Below the pieces are notes generated by a model. That model saw nothing but the letters and a program-made list of their open reading frames with translations, was not told the DNA's origin and did not search any database. From positions 6,924 through 70,923 of the forward strand of contig DASSNL010000104.1 of NCBI GenBank assembly GCA_035688075.1: 64,000 nt of DNA, read 5' to 3'. Each line of letters starts with the position of its first letter. Position 1 is the first letter of the stretch. A program made the translations under genes and the position numbers. The DNA is from Gemmatimonadaceae bacterium. GTDB taxonomy: Bacteria; Gemmatimonadota; Gemmatimonadetes; Gemmatimonadales; Gemmatimonadaceae. Below are positions 1,314-59,925 of this stretch, piece by piece.

Positions 1314-2492
<1,179 letters not shown>

Positions 2493-2668
2493 GGCCCTCT
2501 CCCCCGAGGTCGTTTACTGCTTCCTGCTTCCTGCTTCCTGCTTCCTTACAGCTCCTGCTTCCTTGCCTTTCCTGCTCTCTGCCGTCTGCCCTCTTCCTTC
2601 CCCTCCTCCCTTTCACCGCGCATCTTCTCTCGCTCGATTTAGAGTTCCGTTTCCCATGGAGGCAGAGC

Positions 2669-3326: not shown

Positions 3327-3425
3327 AGAAAGCAGAAAGCAGAAAGCAGTGAACTGCCTAGGGGTCGATGGCCTTCCCCTACGAGCCGTTCACTGCTTTC
3401 TGCTTTCTGCTTCCTGCTTTCTCCT
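3327..3425. repeat. Heptad-armed palindromic intergenic element, copy E2 (minimal form)
   Basis: GAAAGCA x3 + GTGAAC, core TGCCTAGGGGTCGATGGCCTTCCCCTACGAGCCG, then GTTCAC + TGCTTTC TGCTTTC TGCTTCC TGCTTTC. It fills the gap between the convergent stops at 3319 and 3426 almost exactly. Confidence 0.9.
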
Positions 3426-4492: not shown

Positions 4493-4688
4493 GGGGGAGA
4501 GGGCAGGAAGCAGGAACGGCAGGGAAGCAGGAACGGCGAGGAAGCAGGAAACAGGAAACAGGAAACAGGAAACAGGTAACTGCCTCGGGGTCGGGGGCCC
4601 ACCTCCGGGAGCCGGTACCTGTTTCCTGTTTCCTTTTCTCCCTCTCCCTTCACTCCGGAGGCAGTTCACTGCTCTCTGCTTTCTTCCC
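4493..4688. repeat. Heptad-armed palindromic intergenic element, copy E3 (asymmetric, plus an extra solo half-arm)
   Basis: Long left arm (GGAAGCA/GGAACGG units, then GGAAACA x4 + GGTAAC), core TGCCTCGGGGTCGGGGGCCCACCTCCGGGAGCC, short right arm GGTACC TGTTTCC TGTTTCC. An additional GTTCAC TGCTCTC TGCTTTC half-arm lies at 4664-4684. Confidence 0.85.
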
Positions 4689-5682: not shown

Positions 5683-8600
5683 ATGAGACTTCCCGGTTTC
5701 GCCTGGAAGATCGCGCTGGCGATCGGACTCGCCGCCATCCCGCGCCTCGCCGCGGCACAGGGCAGCGGTACGATCAGAGGAACGGTCACGGATTCGTCGT
5801 CCGGCCAGCCGGTCATCGGCGCTCAGGTCACGGTCACGGGCACCACGCTGGGAACGATCACCGGCGGGGATGGCGCGTACACCCTCCGCAACGTTCCCGC
5901 GCGCGCCGTCACAGTGCGCGCACAGCGCATCGGCTTCGCTCCACTCGAGCGCGACATCACGCTCGCCGAGAACGACACCGCGACCGTGAATTTCGCCCTC
6001 ACGGCGATCGCGGCGCAGCTCTCCGAGATCGTCGTCGTGGGCTACGGCACGAGCACTCGCCAGGGCGTGAGCAGCGCGATCACCTCGGTGGGCTCGGAGC
6101 AGCTCGCCAACACGCCGTCGGCGAGCATCGAGTCGGCACTTCAGGGGAAGGCGCCTGGCGTGCAGGTGATGGAGAACGCCGGTAACCCCGGTAACGGACT
6201 CTCCATCCGCGTGCGCGGCCCTGCTTCGATCAACGCCGGCAATCAGCCGCTGTACGTCGTGGACGGCGTGCCGATCATCCAGGACGGCTACGGACAGCTC
6301 GGGATGGGCGGCCAGGATGTCACCGCCGTCTCTGGCCTCAACCCCGACGAGATCGCGTCCATCGACATCCTGAAGGATGCCGCGGCCTCCGCGATCTACG
6401 GTTCGCGCGGCTCCAACGGCGTGGTCATGATCACCACGAAGCGCGGCCAGGAAGGTAAGCCCAAGGTCACCTTCAACGCCTACTACGGTCGCCAGGACAA
6501 TCCGAAGCAGTATCCGCTCGTCAACGCGCAGCAGTACGTGGAGCTGTACAACGAGAGCGCGAAGAACGACGGCTACGACCCGGAAGACTACCCCTTCATT
6601 CCCGGTGAGGATGACGCGCGGAGCTTCAACTGGCAGGACGCTATCTTCCGCGACGCGCCGATCAGCGACATCCAGATCGGCCTGAGCGGCGGGAGCGAAC
6701 GGACCAAGTACTACATCTCGGGGTCGCGCTTCGATCAGGAAGGCATCGTCATCGGGTCGGCGTACAACCGCATCGCGACGCGCCTCAACCTCGACTTCAA
6801 TCCGTACGACAAGCTGCAGCTTCGCACCTCGATCGGCCTCACCCGCGAGGACCACCAGCGGATCGAGGGCGATGGGAGCCTCGACGGTGTCGTGACGAAC
6901 GCCATCGGCATGCAGCCCATGCGCCCGATCTTCTCCGACGATGGGAGCTACGCGGGCCGCGCCGAGGGTCTCAGGTACTCGAACCCGGTGGCGCTGGCGA
7001 ACCTCAACTCCACCTCCCTCAACACGCTCCGCGCGCTCGGCAACGTCGAGGCGACTTACCACTTCACCGATCGCGTCGCGCTCACCGGCCGCCTCGGAAT
7101 GGACATACTGGGGCTCGACGAGGAGCAGTGGGAGTCGCCGCTGGTGGATCGCACCTACGCTGCCAGCAACGGCGGCGTCGGCAAGAGCGGTCACACCAAC
7201 GTGCACCGCTACGTGATGGAGAGCTTCGCCACGGTGGACGCGCTCCGCAACGATCGCAGCACCCTGGAACTCGTTGGCGGGGCCAGCGTGGAGCACAACG
7301 ACTCCGACCTCAACTTCGTCCGCGGTGAGAACTTCCCGGACGGTTTCACCAAGTACGTGCGCAACGCCAGTATCGTCACGGAATACGACGGTCACGCCAC
7401 GAAGAACAACCTCGTTTCCTTCTTCAGCCGCGCCAACTACTCGCTGCTCGGCCGCTATCTCTTCTCCGCGGGCCTGCGCGCCGACGGCTCCTCTCGCTTC
7501 GGTGAGGACAGCCGCTACGGCGTCTTCCCCGCGGCTTCGGTTGGTTGGGTAGTCTCCGACGAGCCCTTCGCCGAGGGACTCGGCAGGGTCGCCAGCCTGA
7601 AGCTGCGCGCCAGCTACGGGGAGACGGGCAACCAGGGGATCGGAGACTTCGCCGCGCGGGCGCTCGCGGGCGGCGTGTCGTATGCCGGAACGCCGGGAAG
7701 CGCGCCGGTGTCCATCGCCAACCCGTCGCTCCGCTGGGAGAACACGCGCGAGTTCGACGGCGGCATGGATCTCTTCCTCTTCGATGGACGGCTCGGGGTC
7801 ACCGCCGACTACTACATCAGGAAGACATCGGACCTGCTCGTCCAGCGGCCCATCGCTCTCACCACGGGCTTCAGCAGCGTGTGGGACAACGTGGGCAACA
7901 TCGAGAACAAGGGTATAGATCTCAGCGTCACCACCGAGAACTTCCGCCCGTCCAACGAGGAGGGCTTCGGGTGGACCACGACGCTGAACCTCACGCGCAA
8001 TCGTAACAAGGTGACCAAGCTCTTCGGAGGCCAGCCCTTCACCACCGGGATCAACGGCCGCGAGACGAGCATCGTGACCGAAGGCCAGCCGCTCGGCTCG
8101 TTCTACATGTACGAGTTCCAGGGCGTGGATCCGCAGACGGGTGACGCGATCTTCCGCGATGTGGACGGCGACGGCGAGCTCACGTCCGCCGACAAGGTGA
8201 TCGTCGGCGATCCGCAGCCCGATTTCTTCGGCGGCCTTTCGAACGAGTTCTCGCTGAAGGGCTTTTCGCTCCGCACCTTCCTGCAGTTCAGCAAGGGCGC
8301 CGACATCTTCAACATGATGCGGCTCTTCACGGATGACGGCGGCTGCACGTGGGACAACATGTGGGCCGGCGCGCTCGATCGCTGGCAGAAGCCGGGCGAC
8401 GTCACCGACATGCCGCGCATGAGCTACGACTGCACCTCGGGCGCCGATGAGATTTCGAGCCGTTACATCGAGGATGGCTCGTACCTGCGGATCCAGGAGG
8501 TCACGCTCTCGTACGCGCTGCCTGCGAGCCTCCTCGCGCCGCTGCGCATCGAGAACGCACAGATCTTCGTTTCGGGACACAACCTCAAGACCTTCACCGA

Positions 8601-8724
8601 CTACTCGGGCTACAACCCGGACGTGAACAGCGCCGGTGCCGGGGCGAACATCGTCATGAGCACCGACTACTTCGCATACCCGATCGCCCGCACCTTCAGC
8701 ATCGGCATCCGAGGTGGATTTTGA
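5683..8724 (+). CDS. SusC/RagA family TonB-linked outer membrane receptor
   Basis: Signal peptide, carboxypeptidase-regulatory-like domain (GTIRGTVTDSSSGQPVIGAQVTVTGT), plug region (DEIASIDILKDAAASAIYGSRGSNGVVMITTKRG), long beta-barrel ending in an aromatic residue (..GIRGGF). RBS GGAGGAAGG. Confidence 0.92.
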   Translation: MRLPGFAWKIALAIGLAAIPRLAAAQGSGTIRGTVTDSSSGQPVIGAQVTVTGTTLGTITGGDGAYTLRNVPARAVTVRAQRIGFAPLERDITLAENDTATVNFALTAIAAQLSEIVVVGYGTSTRQGVSSAITSVGSEQLANTPSASIESALQGKAPGVQVMENAGNPGNGLSIRVRGPASINAGNQPLYVVDGVPIIQDGYGQLGMGGQDVTAVSGLNPDEIASIDILKDAAASAIYGSRGSNGVVMITTKRGQEGKPKVTFNAYYGRQDNPKQYPLVNAQQYVELYNESAKNDGYDPEDYPFIPGEDDARSFNWQDAIFRDAPISDIQIGLSGGSERTKYYISGSRFDQEGIVIGSAYNRIATRLNLDFNPYDKLQLRTSIGLTREDHQRIEGDGSLDGVVTNAIGMQPMRPIFSDDGSYAGRAEGLRYSNPVALANLNSTSLNTLRALGNVEATYHFTDRVALTGRLGMDILGLDEEQWESPLVDRTYAASNGGVGKSGHTNVHRYVMESFATVDALRNDRSTLELVGGASVEHNDSDLNFVRGENFPDGFTKYVRNASIVTEYDGHATKNNLVSFFSRANYSLLGRYLFSAGLRADGSSRFGEDSRYGVFPAASVGWVVSDEPFAEGLGRVASLKLRASYGETGNQGIGDFAARALAGGVSYAGTPGSAPVSIANPSLRWENTREFDGGMDLFLFDGRLGVTADYYIRKTSDLLVQRPIALTTGFSSVWDNVGNIENKGIDLSVTTENFRPSNEEGFGWTTTLNLTRNRNKVTKLFGGQPFTTGINGRETSIVTEGQPLGSFYMYEFQGVDPQTGDAIFRDVDGDGELTSADKVIVGDPQPDFFGGLSNEFSLKGFSLRTFLQFSKGADIFNMMRLFTDDGGCTWDNMWAGALDRWQKPGDVTDMPRMSYDCTSGADEISSRYIEDGSYLRIQEVTLSYALPASLLAPLRIENAQIFVSGHNLKTFTDYSGYNPDVNSAGAGANIVMSTDYFAYPIARTFSIGIRGGF

Positions 8725-8762
8725 GCGCCCGCAGAGCAACCCCGACCAGGACATCCAGGACC

Positions 8763-10088
8763 ATGAGATTGCGACTTCTGCTGCCGGCACTGCTCCTCGG
8801 CGCGCTGGCCGGCTGTGATTCGGTGCTGCAGACGGAACCGTCCGATCTGATTCCCAGCGGGAGTCTGATCAAGGATGGCCCCACCGCGCACGCGGCGCTG
8901 GTTGGCGCTTACGACGCACTGCAGGATCTGTCATACTACGGGAACGACTTCGTCGTGCTCGGCGACATGTCCGCCGACAACGCGGAGCACGTAGGCACTT
9001 ATCAGTTCCTCGATGCCATCTACCGGCACGAGACCCGCGCCGACAACTCGGCGATCACCGGCCTCTGGCAGGCGATCTACGAAGCGGTCGCGCGCGACAA
9101 CGCCATAATCCAGCAACTCCCCGAGGTGACGGAGATCGACGAGGACGAGCGCAACGAGATCCTCGGCGAGGCATATTTTCTGCGCGCGCTCAACTACCAC
9201 AACCTCGTGAAGCTGTGGGGCGACGTTCCGATGCCGCTGAAGCCGGCCGAGAGCCCCGAGGAAGCAGCCGCGTACACGCGGACGCCGGCCGCACAGGTGT
9301 ACCAGCAGATCCTGAGCGACCTCGATCAGGCCAGCAACTTGATGACCGAGGATAGTCAGACCCGACAGGCGTCGCTCGGCGCCGTACGCGCCCTGCGCGC
9401 CCGCGTGGATCTGTACATGGGCGATTGGGCCGGAGCGGTGGCCAACGCCGACAGCGTGTACGATATGGGCTACACGCTCGCAGCTCCCTACTCATCGCTC
9501 TTCTCCTCCGAAGGGTCCGACACTCCGGAGGACATCTTCCGCCTCAGCTTCACCGCGGTCGACTACAACGAGGTGGGCTACTACTACCTCTGGGACGGCC
9601 GTAACGAAGTGGATCCGACCCAGAGCATCTACGAGGCGTACGAGGACGGCGACGCCCGCCGCGACTGGTCGGTGCGCGAGGATGACGGCTACTACGAGGG
9701 CACGAAGTTCCCGACCACCGTTGGTGCCGAAGATCTGCACGTCATCCGCCTCGGCGAGGTTATCCTGATCAAGGCAGAGGCGCTGGCTCAGCAGGACAAG
9801 CTCGAGGAGGCCGTGGATGAGTACAACAAGCTTCGCCTTCGCGCCGGCCTCGATGCGCACGTCTTCGGGACCGACGTATCCACGAAGGACGACGTTCTGC
9901 AGGCGATCTGGCACGAGCGCCGCGTGGAGCTCGCCTTCGAGGGTGACCGCTGGCCCGACCTGGTTCGCACGGGCCAGGCCGTGAGCGTACTCGGGCTCCC
10001 ACCGGCGCAGGCGTACCAGACCCTCTACCCCATCCCCGCCCGCGAGAGAACCGTGGCTCCGGGTCTGACGCAGAACCCGGGGTACTGA
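8763..10088 (+). CDS. SusD/RagB family nutrient-binding outer membrane lipoprotein
   Basis: ATG 8763. Lipobox LGALAG-C. SusD-like motifs (AYFLRALNYHNLVKLWGDVP, ERRVELAFEGDRWPDLVR). Directly follows the SusC gene. Confidence 0.9.
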   Translation: MRLRLLLPALLLGALAGCDSVLQTEPSDLIPSGSLIKDGPTAHAALVGAYDALQDLSYYGNDFVVLGDMSADNAEHVGTYQFLDAIYRHETRADNSAITGLWQAIYEAVARDNAIIQQLPEVTEIDEDERNEILGEAYFLRALNYHNLVKLWGDVPMPLKPAESPEEAAAYTRTPAAQVYQQILSDLDQASNLMTEDSQTRQASLGAVRALRARVDLYMGDWAGAVANADSVYDMGYTLAAPYSSLFSSEGSDTPEDIFRLSFTAVDYNEVGYYYLWDGRNEVDPTQSIYEAYEDGDARRDWSVREDDGYYEGTKFPTTVGAEDLHVIRLGEVILIKAEALAQQDKLEEAVDEYNKLRLRAGLDAHVFGTDVSTKDDVLQAIWHERRVELAFEGDRWPDLVRTGQAVSVLGLPPAQAYQTLYPIPARERTVAPGLTQNPGY

Positions 10089-10247
10089 GGAGAGTAAAAG
10101 GAAGCAGATAGCAGAAAGCAGAAAGCAGAAAGCAGTGGGCGGCTCGTGGGGGATAGGGCCCTCAACCCCGAGGCCGTTCACTGCTTTCTGCTTTCTGCTT
10201 TCTGCTTCCTTGCCGCCCCTGCTTTCCGCTCTCTCCCCCTCCCTCCC
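10089..10247. repeat. Heptad-armed palindromic intergenic element, copy E4
   Basis: GGAAGCA GATAGCA GAAAGCA x3, core GGCGGCTCGTGGGGGATAGGGCCCTCAACCCCGAGGCCG, then GTTCAC TGCTTTC x3 TGCTTCC and a pyrimidine flank. Lies between convergent stops 10088 and 10248. Confidence 0.9.
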
Positions 10248-11405
10248 CTACATCAGCTCCCGCTGGGCAGCGGCTACACCGCTGCCCAGTTCTACATCTA
10301 CGCCTGCCCGCTTCAGTGTCATCTCGACGCCGGTGAGGGCGCCGAGGAGCATGAGCTCATTGAGGTCGCCGAGGTGGCCGATGCGGAAGGCTCTGCCGCC
10401 GAGCTGACCGAGGCCGGCGCCGAGGGAGAGGTTGTAGTGGCGGTACGCGGTGTCGATGATGGTGCTGGAGTTCGTGGCAGAGGGGGTCATCACGGTGCTG
10501 ACCGTGTCGGAGTAGGCGGCGGGATCGGTGGCACAGAGCGAGAGACCCCACGCCTCCACAGCCGCGCGGCAGGCGCCGGCCAGTCGGTTGTGGCGGGCGT
10601 ACACGTTCTCGAGTCCTTCCTCGAGGAGCATGTCGAGCGCTTCGCGGAGGCCGTAGAGGAGAGTGACGGCCGGCGTGTAGGGGAAGTAGCCCTGCGCGTT
10701 CTGCTGCATCATTGGGCCCAGGTCGAAGAATGCGCGCGGAGAGTGCGCGTTCTCGCGCGCAGCGAGCGCCTTCGGACTTACGGCGAGGATGCCGAGTCCG
10801 GCGGGGAGCATGAAGCCCTTCTGCGACCCCGCGATCGCGAGGTCCACGCCCCAGTCATCCATGCGGAACTCGAGGCTCGCAACGGAGCTCACGCCGTCCA
10901 CGTACAGGAGCGCGGGGTGATTGGCCGCATCGATGGCGCGGCGCACGGCGGCAATGTCGCTGGTGACACCGGTCGACGTCTCGTTGTGCACCACCAGCAC
11001 GCCCTTGATCTCGTGCGCCGAGTCGGCGTTCAGCGCCTCCTCGATTCGATCCGGCGGAACGGCCGCACCCCAGTCGGTCTCGATGACATCCACGCGATAG
11101 CCGAGTCGGCGCGCGCTGTCTATGAAGAGGTGGCCGAACTGACCACCGCGAACGGCGAGTAGCCTGTCGCCGGTGGAGAGCGTGTTCACCAGCGCCGCCT
11201 CCCACATCCCGCTTCCAGTAGCCGGAAAAACGAAGGTCTGTGCGCTCGTGGTGCCGAACACCTCTTTCAGTCTCGGGAGGATGGCGCGCGTGAGCTCGGG
11301 GAACGACGACGACCGGTGATCGTCCGTCGCGCGATGCATGGCGCGCTGGATCCTGTCGGGAGTGTTGGATGGACCGGGAACGAAAAGAAAGTTGCGACCG
11401 GGCAT
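10248..11405 (-). CDS. Class V PLP-dependent aminotransferase (alanine/serine-glyoxylate aminotransferase-like)
   Basis: N-terminal FVPGPSN motif, PLP-lysine region AIAGSQKGFMLPAGLG, and length typical of the AGXT/SgaA family. Confidence 0.85.
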   Translation of the reverse strand: MPGRNFLFVPGPSNTPDRIQRAMHRATDDHRSSSFPELTRAILPRLKEVFGTTSAQTFVFPATGSGMWEAALVNTLSTGDRLLAVRGGQFGHLFIDSARRLGYRVDVIETDWGAAVPPDRIEEALNADSAHEIKGVLVVHNETSTGVTSDIAAVRRAIDAANHPALLYVDGVSSVASLEFRMDDWGVDLAIAGSQKGFMLPAGLGILAVSPKALAARENAHSPRAFFDLGPMMQQNAQGYFPYTPAVTLLYGLREALDMLLEEGLENVYARHNRLAGACRAAVEAWGLSLCATDPAAYSDTVSTVMTPSATNSSTIIDTAYRHYNLSLGAGLGQLGGRAFRIGHLGDLNELMLLGALTGVEMTLKRAGVDVELGSGVAAAQRELM

Positions 11406-14397: not shown

Positions 14398-14588
14398 AAG
14401 CAGGGTTCAGGAGGCAGGGTTCAGGGTTCAGGTACTACAGGTACAAGGAGACAGGAAACAGGAAACAGGGAACTGCCTCGGGGGTGAGGGCTCTCCCCCA
14501 CGAGTCGATACCTGTTTCCTGTTCCCTGTTTCCTGTCTCCTGCAGTTGGCAGTCCCTGAACCCTGAACCCCGTAGTTCTGAACCCTCG
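14398..14588. repeat. Composite palindromic element, copy E5 (GGAAACA-type element nested inside GGGTTCA-type arms)
   Basis: Outer arm AGGGTTCAGGAGGCAGGGTTCAGGGTTCAGGTACTAC, inner arm GGAGACA GGAAACA GGAAACA GGGAAC, core TGCCTCGGGGGTGAGGGCTCTCCCCCACGAGTCGA, then the complementary inner arm and the outer arm CTGAACCCTGAACCCCGTAGTTCTGAACCC. Confidence 0.9.
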
Positions 14589-23747: not shown

Positions 23748-24910
23748 GCATCGATCTTTCGGCATCGAAGCGTCGGATGCCGGCCGAGTGGGAACCGCAC
23801 GCGGCGACGTGGATCGGCTGGCCACACCACGCGCCCGACTGGCCGGGAAAGTTCGAGCCGATCCCGTGGGTGTACGCCGAGATCGTGCGCGCACTGCACC
23901 GGCACGAGCGCGTCGAGATCCTGTGCCACAGCGAGGAGGTGGGTGAGGAGGCGTTGCGGCTGCTGCGCTCCCACGCCGTGGATCTCTCGCGCGTCGGACT
24001 GCACCACGTCGCGACCGACCGTGTCTGGCTGCGCGACTCCGGCCCCACGGCCGTGGTGTCGCCCGAAGGTCGCGTGCACTGGGTGCAATGGCGCTTCAAC
24101 GGATGGGCCAAGTACCCCAACCACGCACGCGACCAGCTCGTGCCAGCTCGGGTAGCCGAGATCAGCGGCCTCCCGCTGGAAGAAGCCGTGCGTCCCGACG
24201 ACGCGGCACCGCTAGTTCTCGAGGGAGGCGGCATCGAGACTGACGGCGCAGGCACGCTCATGGTGACGGAGGAGTGGCTCCTCTCCGACGTCCAGGTTCG
24301 CAATCCCGGCCTCGACCGCGCCGGCTACGAACGCGCCTTCGCGCGCTACCTCGGCGTGGACCGCACGATCTGGCTCGGCGAAGGTTGCGTGGGCGACGAC
24401 ACGCACGGCCACATTGACGACATCGCCCGCTTCACCGACTCTCACACGGTGGTGCTCGCCTACGAGGAGGACCCCGCCGACGACAACCATGCCCGCTCCG
24501 CCGACAACCTGCATCGCCTGGAGCTCGCCGCGCGCACCTTCCCCGGCGGCCTCCGGGTGGTGAAGCTCCCCTTCCCTCGCCCCGTGATCATGGACGGCGA
24601 GCGCCTCCCCGCCAGCTACGCCAACTTCTACATAGCCAACGGCGTGGTAATCGTCCCCACCTTCAACGACCCGAAGGACCGCGTCGCCCTCTCCACCCTC
24701 GCCGACCTCTTCCCCGACCACGAAGTCACCGGCATCCACGCCGTAGACCTCGTCTGGGGATTGGGTACGCTGCACTGCCTGTCACAGCAGGAACCCGCGG
24801 GGAGAAAGCAGAGAGCAGAAAGCAGTGAGGGCCGTGAGGGTTCAGGGTTCAGGGTTCAGGGTTCAGGAACTGCCCGAAGGTCGGGCTCTCGACTCCGAGG
24901 TAGTCACTGA
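23744..24910 (+). CDS. aguA: Agmatine deiminase; C-terminal ~37 aa and the stop are encoded by repeat E6
   Basis: N-terminal MPAEWEPHAATWIGWPH and C-terminal catalytic GTLHCLSQQ motifs. The reading frame continues into the heptad repeats (..RKQRAESSEGREGSGFRVQGSG..). Confidence 0.88.
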   Translation: MSIDLSASKRRMPAEWEPHAATWIGWPHHAPDWPGKFEPIPWVYAEIVRALHRHERVEILCHSEEVGEEALRLLRSHAVDLSRVGLHHVATDRVWLRDSGPTAVVSPEGRVHWVQWRFNGWAKYPNHARDQLVPARVAEISGLPLEEAVRPDDAAPLVLEGGGIETDGAGTLMVTEEWLLSDVQVRNPGLDRAGYERAFARYLGVDRTIWLGEGCVGDDTHGHIDDIARFTDSHTVVLAYEEDPADDNHARSADNLHRLELAARTFPGGLRVVKLPFPRPVIMDGERLPASYANFYIANGVVIVPTFNDPKDRVALSTLADLFPDHEVTGIHAVDLVWGLGTLHCLSQQEPAGRKQRAESSEGREGSGFRVQGSGTARRSGSRLRGSH

Positions 24911-24972
24911 ACCCTGAACCCTGTAGTTCTGAACCCTGATAGTTCCCTGCTCTCTGCTCTCTGCTTTCTCCC
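24799..24972. repeat. Composite palindromic element, copy E6 (GGGTTCA-type nested inside GAAAGCA/GAGAGCA arms)
   Basis: Outer arm GAAAGCA GAGAGCA GAAAGCA, inner arm GGGTTCA x4, core TGCCCGAAGGTCGGGCTCTCGACTCCGAGGTAGTCAC, inner arm TGAACCC TGAACCC TGTAGTTC TGAACCC, outer arm TGCTCTC TGCTCTC TGCTTTC. Confidence 0.9.
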
Positions 24973-26383: not shown

Positions 26384-26589
26384 GGGGAAGAAAAAGGCAG
26401 AGAGCAGAGAGCAGAAAGCAGTGAAAACCTCCGGGGCCGACGGGGTCAGGTCTTCAATTTCGAGCCGTACGGGCACTGGCCCGTACGGCTCGAAATTGAA
26501 GACCTGACCCCGTCGGCCTGTTCGAGATCTCGGCTATGGAGGGTTTTCACTGCTTTCTGCTTTCTGCTCTCTGCTCTCTGCTTTCTCTC
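26384..26589. repeat. Heptad-armed palindromic element, copy E7, carrying a perfect 40-bp inverted repeat in its centre
   Basis: Arms GAGAGCA x2 GAAAGCA GTGAAAAC / GTTTTCAC TGCTTTC x2 TGCTCTC x2. Inner arms 26435-26474 and 26479-26518 are exact reverse complements with a 4-nt loop (ACTG). Confidence 0.92.
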
Positions 26590-29160: not shown

Positions 29161-29197
29161 ACACAATAAACTCCCACGTGACGGGATCACGTAGGAG
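29161..29197 (-). terminator. Intrinsic terminator forming the expression platform of the fluoride riboswitch
   Basis: Minus strand reads CTCCTACGTGA-TCCCG-TCACGTGGGAG (11-bp stem) followed by TTTATTGTGT. The 5' arm overlaps the riboswitch pseudoknot strand ACTCCTAC. Confidence 0.7.
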
Positions 29198-29242
29198 TCA
29201 TCAGCCACCTGTCCGTGGCGGTTCACGGCGAACTCCATCGCC
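29191..29242 (-). promoter_or_regulatory. Fluoride riboswitch (crcB RNA motif)
   Basis: Minus strand reads GGCGATGGAGTTCGCCGTGAACCGCCACGGACAGGTGGCTGATGACTCCTAC. P1 is GGCGA/TCGCC, the pseudoknot is GGAGT/ACTCC, and the conserved AACCGCC and GCTGATGA..CCTAC elements are present. Confidence 0.9.
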
Positions 29243-29317
29243 GAATCAGGTTCTAACTCAATCTTACGACCAGCCCGAGACTGCGTCAACGGCCCGGGAG
29301 CTCGTGCCGCCCACACA

Positions 29318-30960: not shown

Positions 30961-31548
30961 GTGCATAGAACACTGTCGCGCCTAGCGCTCGTCGCTGGTC
31001 TCTCCCTCCTCCCCTGCACCGTCGCGGCGCAGCGCGCCCCCGTACAGGAGGAGGGCGCCGTTGCCGAGGCCGACTCCGAGCTCCCACGCCCCTTCGCGAG
31101 CTTCAACGCGTCGGCCCGCTCGCTCCGCGACTCGATCGTCGCGCTCGCCCGCGCGCAGATCGGGAAGCGCTATGTCTACGGCGGTGAGTCGCCCTCGCGC
31201 GGCTTCGACTGCAGTGGCCTAGTTCAGTACATTGCCTCCGCGCTCCATATCCATATCCCACGCACCGCGCGCCTCCAGGCGCACGTGGGCGATTCGATCC
31301 CGCCCGACACTTCGCGCCTCCTCCCCGGCGACCTCCTCACCTTCGGCAACGGCAAGACCATCACCCACATCGGCATCTACGTGGGCGATGGCCGGATGGT
31401 CCACGCCAGCACCGCCGCCGGCAAGGTTATCGAAACGAAGCTCCTCCGCCCCCCGGCGCGGGGAATCAAGCCCTGGCGTGGCGCGAGGAGGTTGGATGTG
31501 GCGGAGGGGGCAGAGGGGAAGCAGGAAGCAGGAAGCAGGAAGCAGTGA
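30961..31548 (+). CDS. NlpC/P60 (C40) family peptidoglycan peptidase; last codons and the stop lie in repeat E8
   Basis: Signal peptide. Catalytic Cys in GFDCSGLVQY and His in ITHIGIYVGDGRMVHAS. The tail ..GAEGKQEAGSRKQ is encoded by heptads. Confidence 0.85.
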   Translation: MHRTLSRLALVAGLSLLPCTVAAQRAPVQEEGAVAEADSELPRPFASFNASARSLRDSIVALARAQIGKRYVYGGESPSRGFDCSGLVQYIASALHIHIPRTARLQAHVGDSIPPDTSRLLPGDLLTFGNGKTITHIGIYVGDGRMVHASTAAGKVIETKLLRPPARGIKPWRGARRLDVAEGAEGKQEAGSRKQ

Positions 31549-31735
31549 ACGACTCGTAATGCAACGTCATCCCCGCAAAAGCGGGGACCCATGTTAGCCA
31601 GACTGAACATGGGTCCCCGCTTTTGCGGGGATGACGACTGTCGGTGTGCAGTTCCTGTTTCCTGCTTCCTGTTTCCTGTTCCCTTGCCGTTCCTGCTTCC
31701 TGCTTCCTGCTTCCTCCTTTCTTCTCACTCCCTCC
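31505..31735. repeat. Heptad-armed palindromic element, copy E8, carrying a 31-bp inverted repeat in its centre
   Basis: Arms GGAAGCA x3 GTGAAC / TGTTTCC, TGCTTCC units. Inner arms 31565-31595 and 31606-31636 (CGTCATCCCCGCAAAAGCGGGGACCCATGTT and its complement) have a 10-nt loop. Confidence 0.9.
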
Positions 31736-33764: not shown

Positions 33765-33943
33765 GGGGGAGGGGAGAGAGCAGAAAGCAGAGAGCAGAAA
33801 GCAGGGAAACCCCCGTAGGCAGGAGGTCGGTGGCATGCCGCGGGTGCCACCAAGAAACAGGAGACAGGAATGGCCCGTAGGGAGAGGCGCCTGTCGCCCG
33901 AGGCGGTTAACTGCTTTCTGCTCTCTGCTGTCTGCTTTCTCCC
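33765..33943. repeat. Heptad-armed palindromic element, copy E9 (in a divergent promoter region)
   Basis: GAGAGCA GAAAGCA GAGAGCA GAAAGCA GGGAAAC ... GGTTAAC TGCTTTC TGCTCTC TGCTGTC TGCTTTC. The centre contains the hairpin GGTGGCA-N9-TGCCACC and GGAGACA/GGAAACA-like fragments. Confidence 0.85.
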
Positions 33944-36239: not shown

Positions 36240-36385
36240 GCGCTGAACAGGAAGCAGGGAGCAGGAAGCGGGAAGCAGTAGCGGCTCTCCAGCGTTGGCT
36301 ACTCCTCCGGGGCCGTTGCTGCCTACCGCTTTCTCCTCTTTGACTTCCTGTTTCCGCGCCTCCCCCCTCCCCCTTCTGCTTTCCC
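36240..36385. repeat. Degenerate heptad-armed element, copy E10 (inside the adaptor-ATPase-permease operon)
   Basis: Left arm GGAAGCA GGGAGCA GGAAGCG GGAAGCA, core-like GCGGCTCTCCAGCGTTGGCTACTCCTCCGGGGCCG, eroded right arm (CTTTCTCC..CTTCCTGTTTCC) and pyrimidine flank CCTCCCCCCTCCCCC. Confidence 0.7.
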
Positions 36386-58165: not shown

Positions 58166-58334
58166 GAAAAGAAAGCAGAGAGCAGAAAGCAGTGACTGCA
58201 AGGGTTCAGGAGGCAGGGTTCAGGGTTCAGGTACTACCTCGGAGTAGAGATCTTTCCGCCCGAGGCAGTCACTGAACCCTGAACCCTGTAGCTCTGAACC
58301 CTGAGGTCCTCACTGCTTTCTGCTTTCGACTTTC
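58166..58334. repeat. Composite palindromic element, copy E11 (GGGTTCA-type nested in GAAAGCA arms)
   Basis: Outer arm GAAAGCA GAGAGCA GAAAGCA GTGAC, inner arm AGGGTTCAGGAGGCAGGGTTCAGGGTTCAGGTACTAC (identical to E5), core CTCGGAGTAGAGATCTTTCCGCCCGAGGCAGTCAC, inner arm TGAACCC TGAACCC TGTAGCTC TGAACCC, outer arm TGCTTTC TGCTTTC GACTTTC. Confidence 0.9.
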
Positions 58335-59651
58335 TCACTTCCCCTCCGTCAACCGGTGCATCAGCACCGCCGCCCGCTTCGTGAGGGGACCGAGCATGCG
58401 GAGGTCGGCGGTTTCTTTTTCGGTGTGGTCGTCGTGGCCGGAGAGGCCGAGGCCATCGATGGCCATGGGGACCAGGTTCGCCACGAAGGCCACGTCGGCG
58501 GCGCCGGCGCGTGAGGGATCTACGGCTTCCACAGGACCGAAGCCGAGGTCGCGGCTCGCCTGGTCGTACATGGCGAGGAGGCGCTTGTTGCCATCGGTGG
58601 GTGCCATGGGCGGGTAGCCCTCGAGGAAGGTGATCTCGGACTTCGTGTTCGGGAGCGACTTCGACACGATCGTGCGCATCGTCTGCTGCGCGCGCTCGAG
58701 CTGCTCGGGACTGATGGCGCGCAGGTCGCCACCCACCTCCACGTGTTCGGCCACCACGTTGTGCTTCCCAGCTGCCTTGCCCTCGGTCAGCGTGGTGTCG
58801 AGGCCCACCATCGTACCACCAACTATCACGCCGGGGTTGAAGGTCAGATACTTCTCGCTCGAGAGCTGCTTGTAGAATTCATCGAGCACCCGGCTCGCCT
58901 CGAAGACCGCGCCCGCGCCAACGGTCGGCGTGAAGATCTGCGACGAGTGCGCCGGAGTGCCGGTGCTCTTCAGGAGCCACGAGCCCGCACTGCGCCGCGA
59001 GATCACCGCGGTGCGCGGGTCGGCGGCACCGTCCTCGAAGCCGAGCGCCGCCGCTGCGCCATGGGCAGCGTCGGTGAGCGCGCGACGTGCCTCGGAGAGC
59101 GGCGGGCCCGAGTCCTCTTCATCGCCGTCGAATACCACGACGATGTTCATCTTGTCGAGGAGCCCCGCGTCCTTCAGCGCGCGCAGAGCGTACACCACTA
59201 TGACATCGCCGCCCTTCATGTCGATGATCCCCGGCCCACGAGCGGTGGAGTCGTCCAGCCGCTCGAACTTCTGAAACGGACTCTCGGGCGGGAACACCGT
59301 GTCGAGATGGCCGATCAGGACGAGCTTGGGTCCCGGCCCTGGATGCTCTGCGACGAGATGCCCAGCGCGCTCGAAGCCGGACCCGTCGACCCACCGGGTG
59401 GTGAAGCCGAGCGAATCGAACTGCGCGCGGAAGACGTCGCCAACCTGACGCACCCCCGCGAAGTTCATCGTCCCGCTGTTGATGTTCACCACGCGGATGA
59501 GGAGGTCGAGCGCCTCGTCGTTGTGCCTGTCGACCGCGCTCACGATCTTCTGCTCGGCCTTGGAGAGCGCCCTCTTCCCCTGCGCCCCCGCCGGCCCCAC
59601 GATCGCCCCGAGCGCGAGGACGAGTGCTAGTGGTAGAGTTTGTGTACGCAT
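58335..59651 (-). CDS. M20 family metallopeptidase (carboxypeptidase G2-like)
   Basis: Signal peptide. Metal-binding motifs (LIGHLDTVF, DMKGG, FDGDEEDSG) and the M20 dimerisation-domain layout. Confidence 0.82.
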   Translation of the reverse strand: MRTQTLPLALVLALGAIVGPAGAQGKRALSKAEQKIVSAVDRHNDEALDLLIRVVNINSGTMNFAGVRQVGDVFRAQFDSLGFTTRWVDGSGFERAGHLVAEHPGPGPKLVLIGHLDTVFPPESPFQKFERLDDSTARGPGIIDMKGGDVIVVYALRALKDAGLLDKMNIVVVFDGDEEDSGPPLSEARRALTDAAHGAAAALGFEDGAADPRTAVISRRSAGSWLLKSTGTPAHSSQIFTPTVGAGAVFEASRVLDEFYKQLSSEKYLTFNPGVIVGGTMVGLDTTLTEGKAAGKHNVVAEHVEVGGDLRAISPEQLERAQQTMRTIVSKSLPNTKSEITFLEGYPPMAPTDGNKRLLAMYDQASRDLGFGPVEAVDPSRAGAADVAFVANLVPMAIDGLGLSGHDDHTEKETADLRMLGPLTKRAAVLMHRLTEGK

Positions 59652-59664
59652 GGAGGGAAGATAA

Positions 59665-59925
59665 GTGAGAGACAGCAGAAAGCAGAAAGCAGAGGGCAGA
59701 GGGCAGAGGGCAGAAAGCAGAAAGCAGTGAAAACCCTGAGGGTTCGGAACTACAGGGTTCAGAACTACAGGGTTCAGGGTTCAGGTACTACCTCGGGGGA
59801 GTGGATCTCGAGCGTCGGGCAGTTCCTGAACCCTGAACCCTGCCTCCTGAACCCTCGAGCAGTTCCTGCTTTCTGAACCCTCGAGCAGTTCCTGCTTTCT
59901 GCTGTCTGCCTTCTGCTTTCACCCG
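59665..59925. repeat. Composite palindromic element, copy E12 (largest; GGGTTCA-type in flipped orientation inside GAAAGCA/GAGGGCA arms, with a 26-nt tandem duplication)
   Basis: Outer arm GAAAGCA x2 GAGGGCA x3 GAAAGCA x2. Inner left arm has CTAC-interrupted GGGTTCA units; inner right arm is CCTGAACCCTGAACCCTGCCTCCTGAACCCT. The unit CTGAACCCTCGAGCAGTTCCTGCTTT is repeated at 59847-59872 and 59873-59898. Confidence 0.9.

Follow-up and report, generated by a model that had tools for sequence, protein, structure and literature searches.

At positions 10089-10247 of a 64-kb stretch of Gemmatimonadaceae DNA (66% GC; the whole stretch is called the window here), two facing arrays of 7-nt repeats enclose a short palindrome. 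Related elements elsewhere in the window carry other repeat units, and within each element the two arms are complementary. What keeps the arms matched while the unit changes from copy to copy? A preliminary description of this DNA had offered two answers: selection on pairing, in a hairpin of RNA or single-stranded DNA, or homogenization of both arms from one template strand.

The copy at 10089-10247, designated E4, fills the space between a SusD-like ORF on the plus strand (8721-10088, stop codon 10086-10088) and a class-V aminotransferase gene on the minus strand (stop codon 10248-10250). After a short, purine-rich spacer (10089-10099), the left arm begins 11 nt past the SusD-like stop codon. 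It consists of one GGAAGCA, one GATAGCA and three GAAAGCA units followed by a G, with CAG recurring every 7 nt (10100-10135). The 45-nt core (10136-10180, minus strand) is a copy of a conserved 44-nt imperfect palindrome, core A (consensus TGAACTGCCTCGGGGGTGAGGGCCCTACCCCCACGAGCCGTTCA), and matches our covariance model R1 at 63.4 bits (E = 4e-16) as well as alignments A1 and A2. The right arm (10181-10209) is a C followed by three TGCTTTC units and one TGCTTCC, and a degenerate pyrimidine tail with decayed heptads such as CTGCTTT, CCGCTCT and CTCCCCC (10210-10247) reaches the aminotransferase stop codon. Tandem Repeats Finder places period-7 arrays of 3.9-4.9 copies at 10102-10135 and 10181-10207.

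The segment 10100-10209 is therefore a heptad hairpin around a 45-nt core. The right arm complements the left; as a correction to the preliminary description, the arms are unequal, with 5 units on the left and 4 on the right. As RNA, E4 has a predicted folding energy of -94.7 kcal/mol (z = -9.2), and the opposite strand reaches -90.3 (z = -6.6). As DNA, the fold is at -47.1 (z = -10.9), with the surplus left-arm heptad looped out.

Eleven other copies lie within the same 64 kb. Period-7 arrays are found by Tandem Repeats Finder at 12 window loci, CAG or CTG is present in every real array, and the pattern of three CAGN4 units plus a closing CAG occurs 28 times against 0.01 expected by chance. 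The CAG/CTG heptad arms reported earlier are real, and each of the unit types then named (GGAAGCA, GAAAGCA, GGAAACA, GAGAGCA, GAGGGCA and GGGTTCA, with their complements) is present in the copies to which it had been assigned. Core A is recognized by R1 in E1-E5, on both strands and in 5 of 5 cases inside heptad arms. E1 (2436-2546, minus strand) has GGAAGCA arms around core A at 2473-2516 (minus), and a MalK-like ORF enters it and stops at 2492. E2 (3327-3422, plus), between convergent genes, has GAAAGCA arms and core A at 3350-3392 (plus). In E3 (4503-4638, plus), a left arm of GGAAGCA and GGAAACA faces a right arm of TGTTTCC across core A at 4576-4618 (plus).

Other copies are nested, have a different core or are decayed. 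E5 (14401-14586, plus) combines outer GGGTTCA arms and remnants of a second, type-B core with inner GGAAACA arms and core A at 14469-14511 (plus). The reverse order is seen in E6 (24803-24969, minus), where outer GAAAGCA/GAGAGCA arms enclose GGGTTCA arms and a type-B core at 24867-24906, and an agmatine-deiminase-like ORF terminates at 24910. E11 (58170-58335, plus) has outer GAAAGCA arms with core-A end remnants, and E12 (59670-59920, plus), between divergent genes, has outer GAAAGCA/GAGGGCA arms; the inner elements of both have GGGTTCA arms and type-B cores, at 58231-58271 and 59785-59825, respectively. An unrelated long palindrome (about 26430-26530) takes the place of the core in E7 (26397-26586; GAGAGCA/GAAAGCA arms), as does a GTCATCCCCGC...GCGGGGATGAC palindrome (about 31560-31650) in E8 (31517-31719; GGAAGCA arms), where an NlpC/P60 ORF stops at the CAGTGA junction (31548). 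E9 (33775-33940), also between divergent genes, has GAAAGCA/GAGAGCA arms and a 106-nt core. E10 (36248-36330) is a decayed copy with an ABC ATPase gene on one side and its permease gene on the other.

All copies share one polarity. Each unit of the 5' arm is CAG with four mostly purine bases after it, and the 3' arm is the complement, on whichever strand the element is read, so that the purine strand runs 5' to 3' towards the apex from both sides. Array pairs are CAG-first rather than CTG-first by 14:0 in the window and by 18:3 in loci fetched by a single arm. The number of heptads per arm varies from 2 to more than 8, and left and right counts are almost uncorrelated (r = 0.13 for 133 metagenome elements, among the matches listed). 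The arms are all that RNAalifold recovers from whole elements. Core A itself is homologous and oriented between copies and has a T.C mismatch that recurs, as well as a bulged C and a bulged A; its hand-drawn helix is 82% paired yet shows little covariation, and the core is thus conserved in sequence while its structure is unproven.

Core A travels with its arms. Model R1 found 27 matches in 100 other loci, every one heptad-capped and some of them in copies that had played no part in fetching the locus; altogether core A recurs at 30 or more loci, always within arms. Core subtypes are linked to unit types: TG-starting cores occur with RRAG-CAG units in 17 of 17 cases, and GT, GG or TA cores with GAAA-CAG units in 6 of 9 (p = 4e-4). 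TGAAC...GTTCA cores carry GAAAGCA, GAGAGCA or GGAAGCA arms, GTAAC...GGTAC cores mostly GGAAACA arms, and core B accompanies the GGGTTCA arms of E6, E11 and E12. The linkage of core subtype to unit type indicates that whole elements propagate as subfamilies. Copies also accumulate inside one another: in E5, E6, E11 and E12, the inner element sits between remnants of both ends of the outer core, foreign palindromes occupy the apex of E7 and E8 and of the loci L001, L004, L024 and L060, and flanks beyond the perfect arms resemble decayed heptads. The picture that emerges is one of layered copies, with what would be the youngest palindrome at the center. E4 is one copy of this dispersed, fast-evolving, non-coding hairpin repeat of a soil Gemmatimonadota lineage; the aminotransferase beside it is matched best by proteins from metagenome-assembled genomes of Gemmatimonadaceae and Gemmatimonadales.

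We measured the matching of arms in 10 cleanly delimited window copies, using the 4 variable bases of each heptad in core-proximal register and, as shuffled partners, arms of other copies from the same genome. Variable bases agreed with the element's own partner arm at 95% of positions, compared with 52% for shuffled partners, and 0 of 10000 permutations reached the observed value. A metagenome scan with GCAG/CTGC fixed and R or Y at the remaining positions yielded at least 133 distinct elements. Among the matches listed, arm identity in the 133 was 84% vs 66 ± 1.3% after shuffling, and 81 of these 133 had the same dominant unit in both arms. Ungapped alignment of 84 arm pairs revealed double changes at 12 of 12 variable pairs, with 162 double-change cells where shuffling gives 64 ± 16 (a value of 162 was reached in 0 of 500 shuffles). 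Rare CGG/CCG units are mirrored exactly in both arms (L214:343, L128:1959, L152:3527), and the order of units is mirrored between the arms of E7 and E9. The compensated arm differences that had been described for the window are thus borne out here and in the larger sample. The invariance claimed for CAG/CTG holds for all window arrays but gives way in the mirrored CGG/CCG variants and in CAG-less heptad hairpins of other Gemmatimonadota.

Closely related strains differ in these elements. In contig pairs whose flanks are 98-100% identical, a single arm differs by one to four heptads (L007/L008, L135/L142, L147/L157); L135 and L142 have 7 vs 3 units in one arm between identical flanks. The preliminary description attributed variation in heptad number to slippage, and the near-identical pairs L007/L008 and L135/L142 display the copy-number change directly. 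Uncompensated point changes separate L193 from L214 (98-100% identical flanks), and L163 and L238 have the 44-nt core exactly inverted between 100% identical flanks. Both the core inversions and the copy-number differences come from short-read metagenome assemblies and could be artefacts, since an assembler can in principle traverse a short inverted-repeat loop either way. In another lineage, (GAAAGCA)3-4 arms are 92-100% conserved, against 75-81% identity in the coding sequence next to them and a loop that is scrambled. That the arms outconserve coding sequence points to selection on the arm sequence itself or to its constant regeneration. At one locus of this lineage the arms are apparently translated. 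Outside the window, arms apparently also read as a signal peptide; this putative, hairpin-encoded peptide belongs to the cytochrome c of an alternative complex III locus (L132, L167, L227). A 7-nt period had been considered incompatible with coding; however, three heptads make 21 nt, and in the window the arms read as protein tails of the ORFs that end in E1, E6 and E8.

The position of the elements relative to genes is biased. Gene strands were assigned with a codon-periodicity caller checked on the window, together with Pfam hits, after an ORF-based caller was dropped as too error-prone. Window elements occupy 6 of 7 convergent junctions, four tandem and two divergent ones (Fisher p = 6e-4), and the metagenome sample contains, among the matches listed, 30 convergent, 39 tandem and 5 divergent placements (p = 2e-5). 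In the same sample, again among the matches listed, 128 of 191 callable flanks are gene 3' ends. The arms begin 0-13 nt from stop codons, and the element is therefore essentially the whole spacer.

We compared the window with syntenic contigs of relatives (L001-L009; aminotransferase 95, 89, 87 and 84% identical). The neighboring genes are syntenic also in relatives without the element. In the spacer between the aminotransferase and SusD genes, every relative has an element, yet a different one: L001, where the flanking protein is 95% identical, has GGAAGCA arms and a core inverted relative to the window's GAAAGCA copy; L004 has GGAAACA arms plus a foreign palindrome; in L007 and L008, GGAAACA arms enclose a short core. 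At one orthologous site with flanks that are 92% identical, neither the core nor the unit is the same. In the GGT-permease spacer, the window and L001 have an element and L003 a decayed one, whereas L004 has an empty spacer of 46 nt and L007 a plain GC hairpin, and plain GC-rich hairpins also stand at the E1 and E2 sites in L004 and L007. These plain hairpins suggest a recent spread, in the window's lineage, into places of ordinary terminator-like hairpins. Judged by position, a role as a two-way transcription terminator or 3'-end hairpin would be the most likely one for the element. To judge from its position bias and uniform polarity, and from the plain hairpins that relatives have at orthologous sites, the host would use the element, or at least tolerate it, in this capacity. 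A terminator role does not fit the 2 of 12 window copies between divergent genes and the one inside an operon.

Heptad hairpins are not confined to this lineage. A genome collection with one genome per species was scanned for four GCAGRRA units; here, as in the metagenome scan, counts are minimum figures and the frequencies of taxa have no quantitative meaning. The matches listed include Gemmatimonadota, Acidobacteriota, Planctomycetota, Verrucomicrobiota, Cyanobacteria, Bacteroidota and others. Mirror-image hairpins built from differing units (GAAACCA, AGTCCAA, AAATGCA, GGTTTCG, ACGAGCG, CCTTCGA) occur in Thermoanaerobaculia, Chloracidobacterium, Latescibacterota, Bacteroidia and other Gemmatimonadota, and some cyanobacteria and Bacteroidia have facing CAG and CTG arrays with unmatched variable bases. 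A scan of viral contigs for the two-arm pattern gave 0 matches. CAG phasing is not universal among bacterial heptamers, as CAG or CTG is present in 65 of 172 other period-7 arrays among the matches listed. The earlier idea that CAG/CTG is a contact or cleavage motif is weakened by the CAG-less heptad hairpins of Gemmatimonadota and other phyla; CAG is better described as a trait of the family than as an established contact site.

We give about an even chance to a reading in which the palindrome behaves as a unit of DNA that is copied whole, nests at its apex, slips in one arm, has its arms recopied and acts as a two-way 3'-end hairpin. Whole elements, core and arms together, would be copied to many loci as subfamilies, the unit type being inherited along with its complement. 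New palindromes would land at the apex of older ones, producing onion-like layers with mirrored unit types and decay outwards. Each arm may independently gain or lose heptads through replication slippage, and one arm may occasionally be recopied from the other by intrastrand template switching or by recombination within the palindrome, a process that could also flip the core. In gene-end spacers, above all convergent ones, the element would serve, or be tolerated, as a two-way terminator or 3'-end hairpin. Mobility is read from dispersal here, since we found no transposase, target-site duplication or clean filled-versus-empty site pair.

Could the transcript, rather than the DNA, be what holds the arms together? 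It is possible, although unlikely, that the element is a 3'-UTR hairpin RNA, either a two-way intrinsic terminator or an mRNA stabilizer, and that compensatory substitutions selected in the transcript maintain its complementarity. In favor of this are the very stable folds of both strands, the strong covariation and the enrichment at gene 3' ends and convergent junctions. Moreover, the element is the sole hairpin in those spacers, with plain hairpins at orthologous sites of relatives, its arms are kept while loops drift, and its purine-first, pyrimidine-last polarity leaves a U/C-rich 3' side in both directions. However, RNA pairing tolerates G.U, and the transcribed strand shows no excess of it: in 68 elements transcribed from one side only, we counted 33 G.U-type against 43 A.C-type mismatches (p = 0.30), in a test whose power is modest (76 informative mismatches) and which assumes a core-proximal pairing register. 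Arm length showed no asymmetry relative to transcription (the 3' arm is no longer than the 5' arm, 16 vs 18), and the core lies in both orientations relative to transcription, with no tie to gene direction, and is inverted between close relatives. The mirroring of CGG/CCG variants is exact even where a G.U pair would suffice, so that G-C compensation is complete down to rare variants, and the stems far exceed the needs of a terminator. Copies between divergent genes and inside an operon also count against this reading. In addition, unit type is tied to core subtype; many of the apparent compensations are therefore inherited subfamily traits, and few independent events are needed. Rfam, at gathering and E-value thresholds, has no family for the element, and over 10040-10300 gives only generic miRNA-precursor long-hairpin models far below threshold on both strands. 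On the sequences available, it is more likely that the arms are kept complementary by DNA-level copying than by compensatory selection on RNA. Of the two causes first proposed, homogenization from one template, combined with inheritance of whole palindromes, is favored by the evidence, and selection on RNA pairing is not.

Copying at the DNA level need not involve movement. In an account we consider quite unlikely, the stem repeat of an existing hairpin slips in 7-nt units, the most slippage-prone in bacteria, quasi-palindrome correction copies the changes to the other arm, and nothing moves. A heptamer excess is general in bacteria and, where Rehm et al. 2015 take it up (PMC4692102), is ascribed to polymerase slippage, following Mrazek 2007. 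Period 7 likewise dominates the tandem repeats of our fetched loci (297 of 586 rows, among the matches listed), and single-arm copy-number changes separate strains. Mirror-image hairpins also exist in Acidobacteriota, Bacteroidota, Latescibacterota, Cyanobacteria and other Gemmatimonadota, with units and loops that bear no relation to those of this family; in general, building in place may therefore outweigh the copying of elements. Growth in place does not predict that a 44-nt core, conserved and oriented, should recur at 30 or more loci, always inside arms, nor the link of core subtype to unit type, the core-end remnants around the inner elements of nested copies, or the difference in both core and unit at an orthologous site with 92%-identical flanks. 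These four features argue for copying between loci, at least in this lineage. The heptads could be iterated recognition or cleavage tags for an enzyme of folded single-stranded DNA such as a RAYT/HUH-like transposase, additions to 3' ends by a templated polymerase or binding sites of a repeat-reading protein, which we judge highly improbable. The invariance of CAG across window arrays, the strict polarity of the purine strand towards the apex, the asymmetric irregularities retained in the core (T.C mismatch, bulged C and A), the apex as a hot spot for palindrome insertion and the one lineage that conserves arm sequence and not pairing alone would all be natural for a protein substrate. A G(C/T)AG adjoins the core stem as well, recalling GTAG-tagged REPs, but on the opposite side of the stem from E. 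coli-type REPs; CAG gives way in the mirrored variants, other heptad hairpins lack it, and no candidate gene was seen in the window or the loci. Somewhat broader, though still improbable, is the proposal that a dedicated enzymatic system, such as a folded-ssDNA nuclease or transposase or a templated polymerase that adds or copies heptads towards the apex, builds and spreads the hairpins and inserts palindromes. If this were true, the elements of Gemmatimonadota, Acidobacteriota, Xanthomonas and others would be a new class of mobile or self-renewing DNA that also supplies the host's genes with terminators, protein tails and even signal peptides.

Inverted repeats of heptamers have been described before, in Xanthomonas. 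Each genome has about 185 GGGAATC arrays, 70-75 of them in facing pairs. The arrays lie an average of 28 nt past the ORF upstream, seldom occur between divergent genes and differ from species to species; Nostoc has an intergenic heptameric simple-sequence repeat with the unit GGGGA(C/T)T (PMC4692102). Like the Gemmatimonadota elements, these are intergenic 7-nt tandems just past stop codons, often in inverted pairs able to form a stem-loop, under-represented between divergent genes, and found beside the same genes in related species with variable length and sequence. E4 has the features of such an inverted heptameric repeat: a 7-nt tandem unit and inverted arrays 45 nt apart in an intergenic position downstream of an ORF. 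Its GAAAGCA unit lacks a G-tract and so falls outside the G-rich, G-quadruplex type of unit (GGGAATC or GGGGAYT); the GGGTTCA arms of E5, E6, E11 and E12 are the only ones in the window to fit the G3N4 quadruplex motif. The Xanthomonas inverted heptamers and the Gemmatimonadota elements are the same kind of object. They differ in phylum and unit, with CAG plus purines in the present family, which in addition has several partner-matched unit types per genome, a 44-nt apex core and nesting. Arm covariation and cores were not analyzed in PMC4692102, and our literature search found no paper on such repeats in Gemmatimonadota. New here are the several partner-matched unit types within one genome, a conserved core that falls into subfamilies, the nesting in layers and the dynamics between strains.

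REP, BIME and REPIN sequences are short, high-copy, dispersed extragenic palindromes, non-autonomous and associated with RAYT transposases (Bertels & Rainey 2011, PMC3116915; Di Nocera et al. 2013, PMC3733652). A REP is defined as a 20-40 bp palindrome whose 5' end carries an unpaired tag, GTAG or CGTC (PMC3733652). Similar to the heptad family, they lie mainly after genes, between convergent or co-directional ones, are thought to form RNA hairpins and have G(C/T)AG beside the stem. However, they are without tandem heptad arms, and the stems of the heptad family are much longer. The tag is also misplaced for a REP: the CTGC/CTAC of the core lies 5' of the stem, which puts G(C/T)AG 3' of it, on the other strand. 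Element-flanking window ORFs scanned against Pfam include no RAYT or other transposase. In terms of MITEs, the arms are inverted repeats, and neither a target-site duplication nor a parent IS was found, with no filled-versus-empty pair to compare. Integron attC sites consist of R''(RYYYAAC)...R'(GTTRRRY) boxes with extrahelical bases at a cassette 3' end, next to an integrase gene; the core ends TGAAC...GTTCACT have C, not R, after GTT, and there is no integrase gene.

The STRR heptamers of cyanobacteria are intergenic tandem arrays. They and the TAACTGA repeats resemble the present family in being intergenic heptamer arrays, several with CAG or CTG, but they are mostly direct repeats upstream of start codons. 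The TAACTGA direct repeats, equivalent to CTGATAA, were reported by MacGregor 2015 (PMC4679880); this paper and one on intrastrand triplexes (PMC4666352) describe different things. In Moorena and Anabaena loci, CAG arrays are followed by CTG arrays, and where two arrays face each other, in L090, L093 and L014, the variable bases are not complementary.

Template switching within quasi-palindromes is the subject of Ripley's model, and small inversions occur in the hairpin loops of chloroplast DNA. Such switching predicts recopied mirror arms, compensation without selection and loop flipping between close relatives, as observed. As a mutational process and not an element family, however, it leaves the 7-nt period and the spread of one core over many loci unexplained. 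Two-way intrinsic terminators are found at convergent genes, and high-GC bacteria have hairpin terminators poor in U-tracts. Like these, the elements are GC-containing hairpins that fill convergent spacers, purine-rich on the 5' and pyrimidine-rich on the 3' side in both directions. They differ in their stem of 25-40 bp of tandem repeats without a canonical U-tract and in the copies that lie in promoter regions or inside an operon. A canonical intrinsic terminator has a GC-rich stem of 5-20 bp, a 3-8 nt loop and a U-tract; no T-run follows the E4 stem. A scan with a terminator consensus returned partial arm or core fragments of E1, E2, E3 and E5 only, and nothing at E4.

Of all long simple repeats, heptamers are the most strongly over-represented in many bacteria, and here their history can be traced, with partner-matched unit types in one genome, a conserved core and layers that record the order of insertion. 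Differences between strains display slippage and possibly the flipping of cores. The family could show how palindromes stay perfect without RNA selection, how terminator-like hairpins are replaced wholesale in a lineage, and how repeats feed new C-terminal tails and signal-peptide-like N-termini into proteins. In practical terms, the elements break short-read assemblies (several contigs end inside one) and lengthen predicted ORFs.

The window has no tRNA or tmRNA genes. The sole Rfam match in it that passes the gathering threshold is a fluoride riboswitch at 29185-29251.

Because 7 and 3 share no common factor, a heptad array encodes an identical seven-residue repeat in all frames. In three further fetched loci, L132 (9379-10041, minus strand), L167 and L227, an open reading frame (ORF) runs in frame through an entire heptad hairpin at the junction of ActD and cytochrome c in an alternative complex III operon. 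It starts with a conserved M(S/F)RG, after which the purine arm is translated as SRKQKAESRN. The loop that follows varies (26, 32 or 43 nt) with the frame preserved, and the pyrimidine arm beyond it is translated as LLSAFCFLLSAF. The ORF then arrives at a cysteine immediately ahead of the conserved mature cytochrome. Therefore, the heptad hairpin seems to encode a signal-peptide-like N-terminus of cytochrome c at these loci.

Three ORFs in the window enter the left arm of an element and terminate within that element: a MalK-like ATPase (2410-2492, copy E1), an agmatine-deiminase-like protein (24800-24910, E6) and an NlpC/P60 protein (31517-31548, E8). One such stop is the TGA of the CAGTGAAC junction. 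All three have thereby acquired heptad-coded C-terminal tails, such as RKQEAGS, and the MalK tail is approximately 17 residues longer in the window than in the syntenic contigs L004 and L007.

The apex of heptad hairpins is repeatedly occupied by members of a second family of dispersed palindromes, GTCATCCCCGCGAAAGCGGGGATCCATGTT...AACATGGATCCCCGCTTTCGCGGGGATGAC, composed of two small hairpins. This family is found in E8 (31560-31650), in two syntenic contigs (L001, 6840-6920; L004, 11240-11300) and in L024 and L060. The apex of E7 (26430-26530) holds another long palindrome, different from this one.

The (GGGTTCA)n arms (24837-24866, 14401-14431, 58201-58230 and 59768-59784) match a G3N4 quadruplex motif, a fit they share with the GGGAATC repeats of Xanthomonas. 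They can also be read as TTCAGGG repeats, resembling telomeric units. That is probably a coincidence.

Inverted heptad arrays that lack CAG, (CCTTCGA)n and (GGTCGAA)n, occur in another Gemmatimonadales genome (L052, 5841-6091), with the pyrimidine-rich arm first. Between them lie a tRNA-Met gene (5886-5959) and an incomplete second copy of the 3' end of that gene, which is accompanied by terminator-like hairpins.

Heptad elements break short-read assemblies: several metagenome contigs of relatives (L003, L005, L006 and L009) terminate within or directly at the element that follows the aminotransferase gene.

The window also carries a fluoride riboswitch (crcB motif; 29185-29251, minus strand), which scores 61.7 bits where the gathering score is 34. 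Directly after an ABC ATPase gene, eight paralogous ORFs, each about 800-830 residues long, follow one another in tandem (36468-57250); the first, to which our scan was confined, encodes a MacB/FtsX-type permease. This first permease gene is separated from the ATPase gene by the decayed copy E10.
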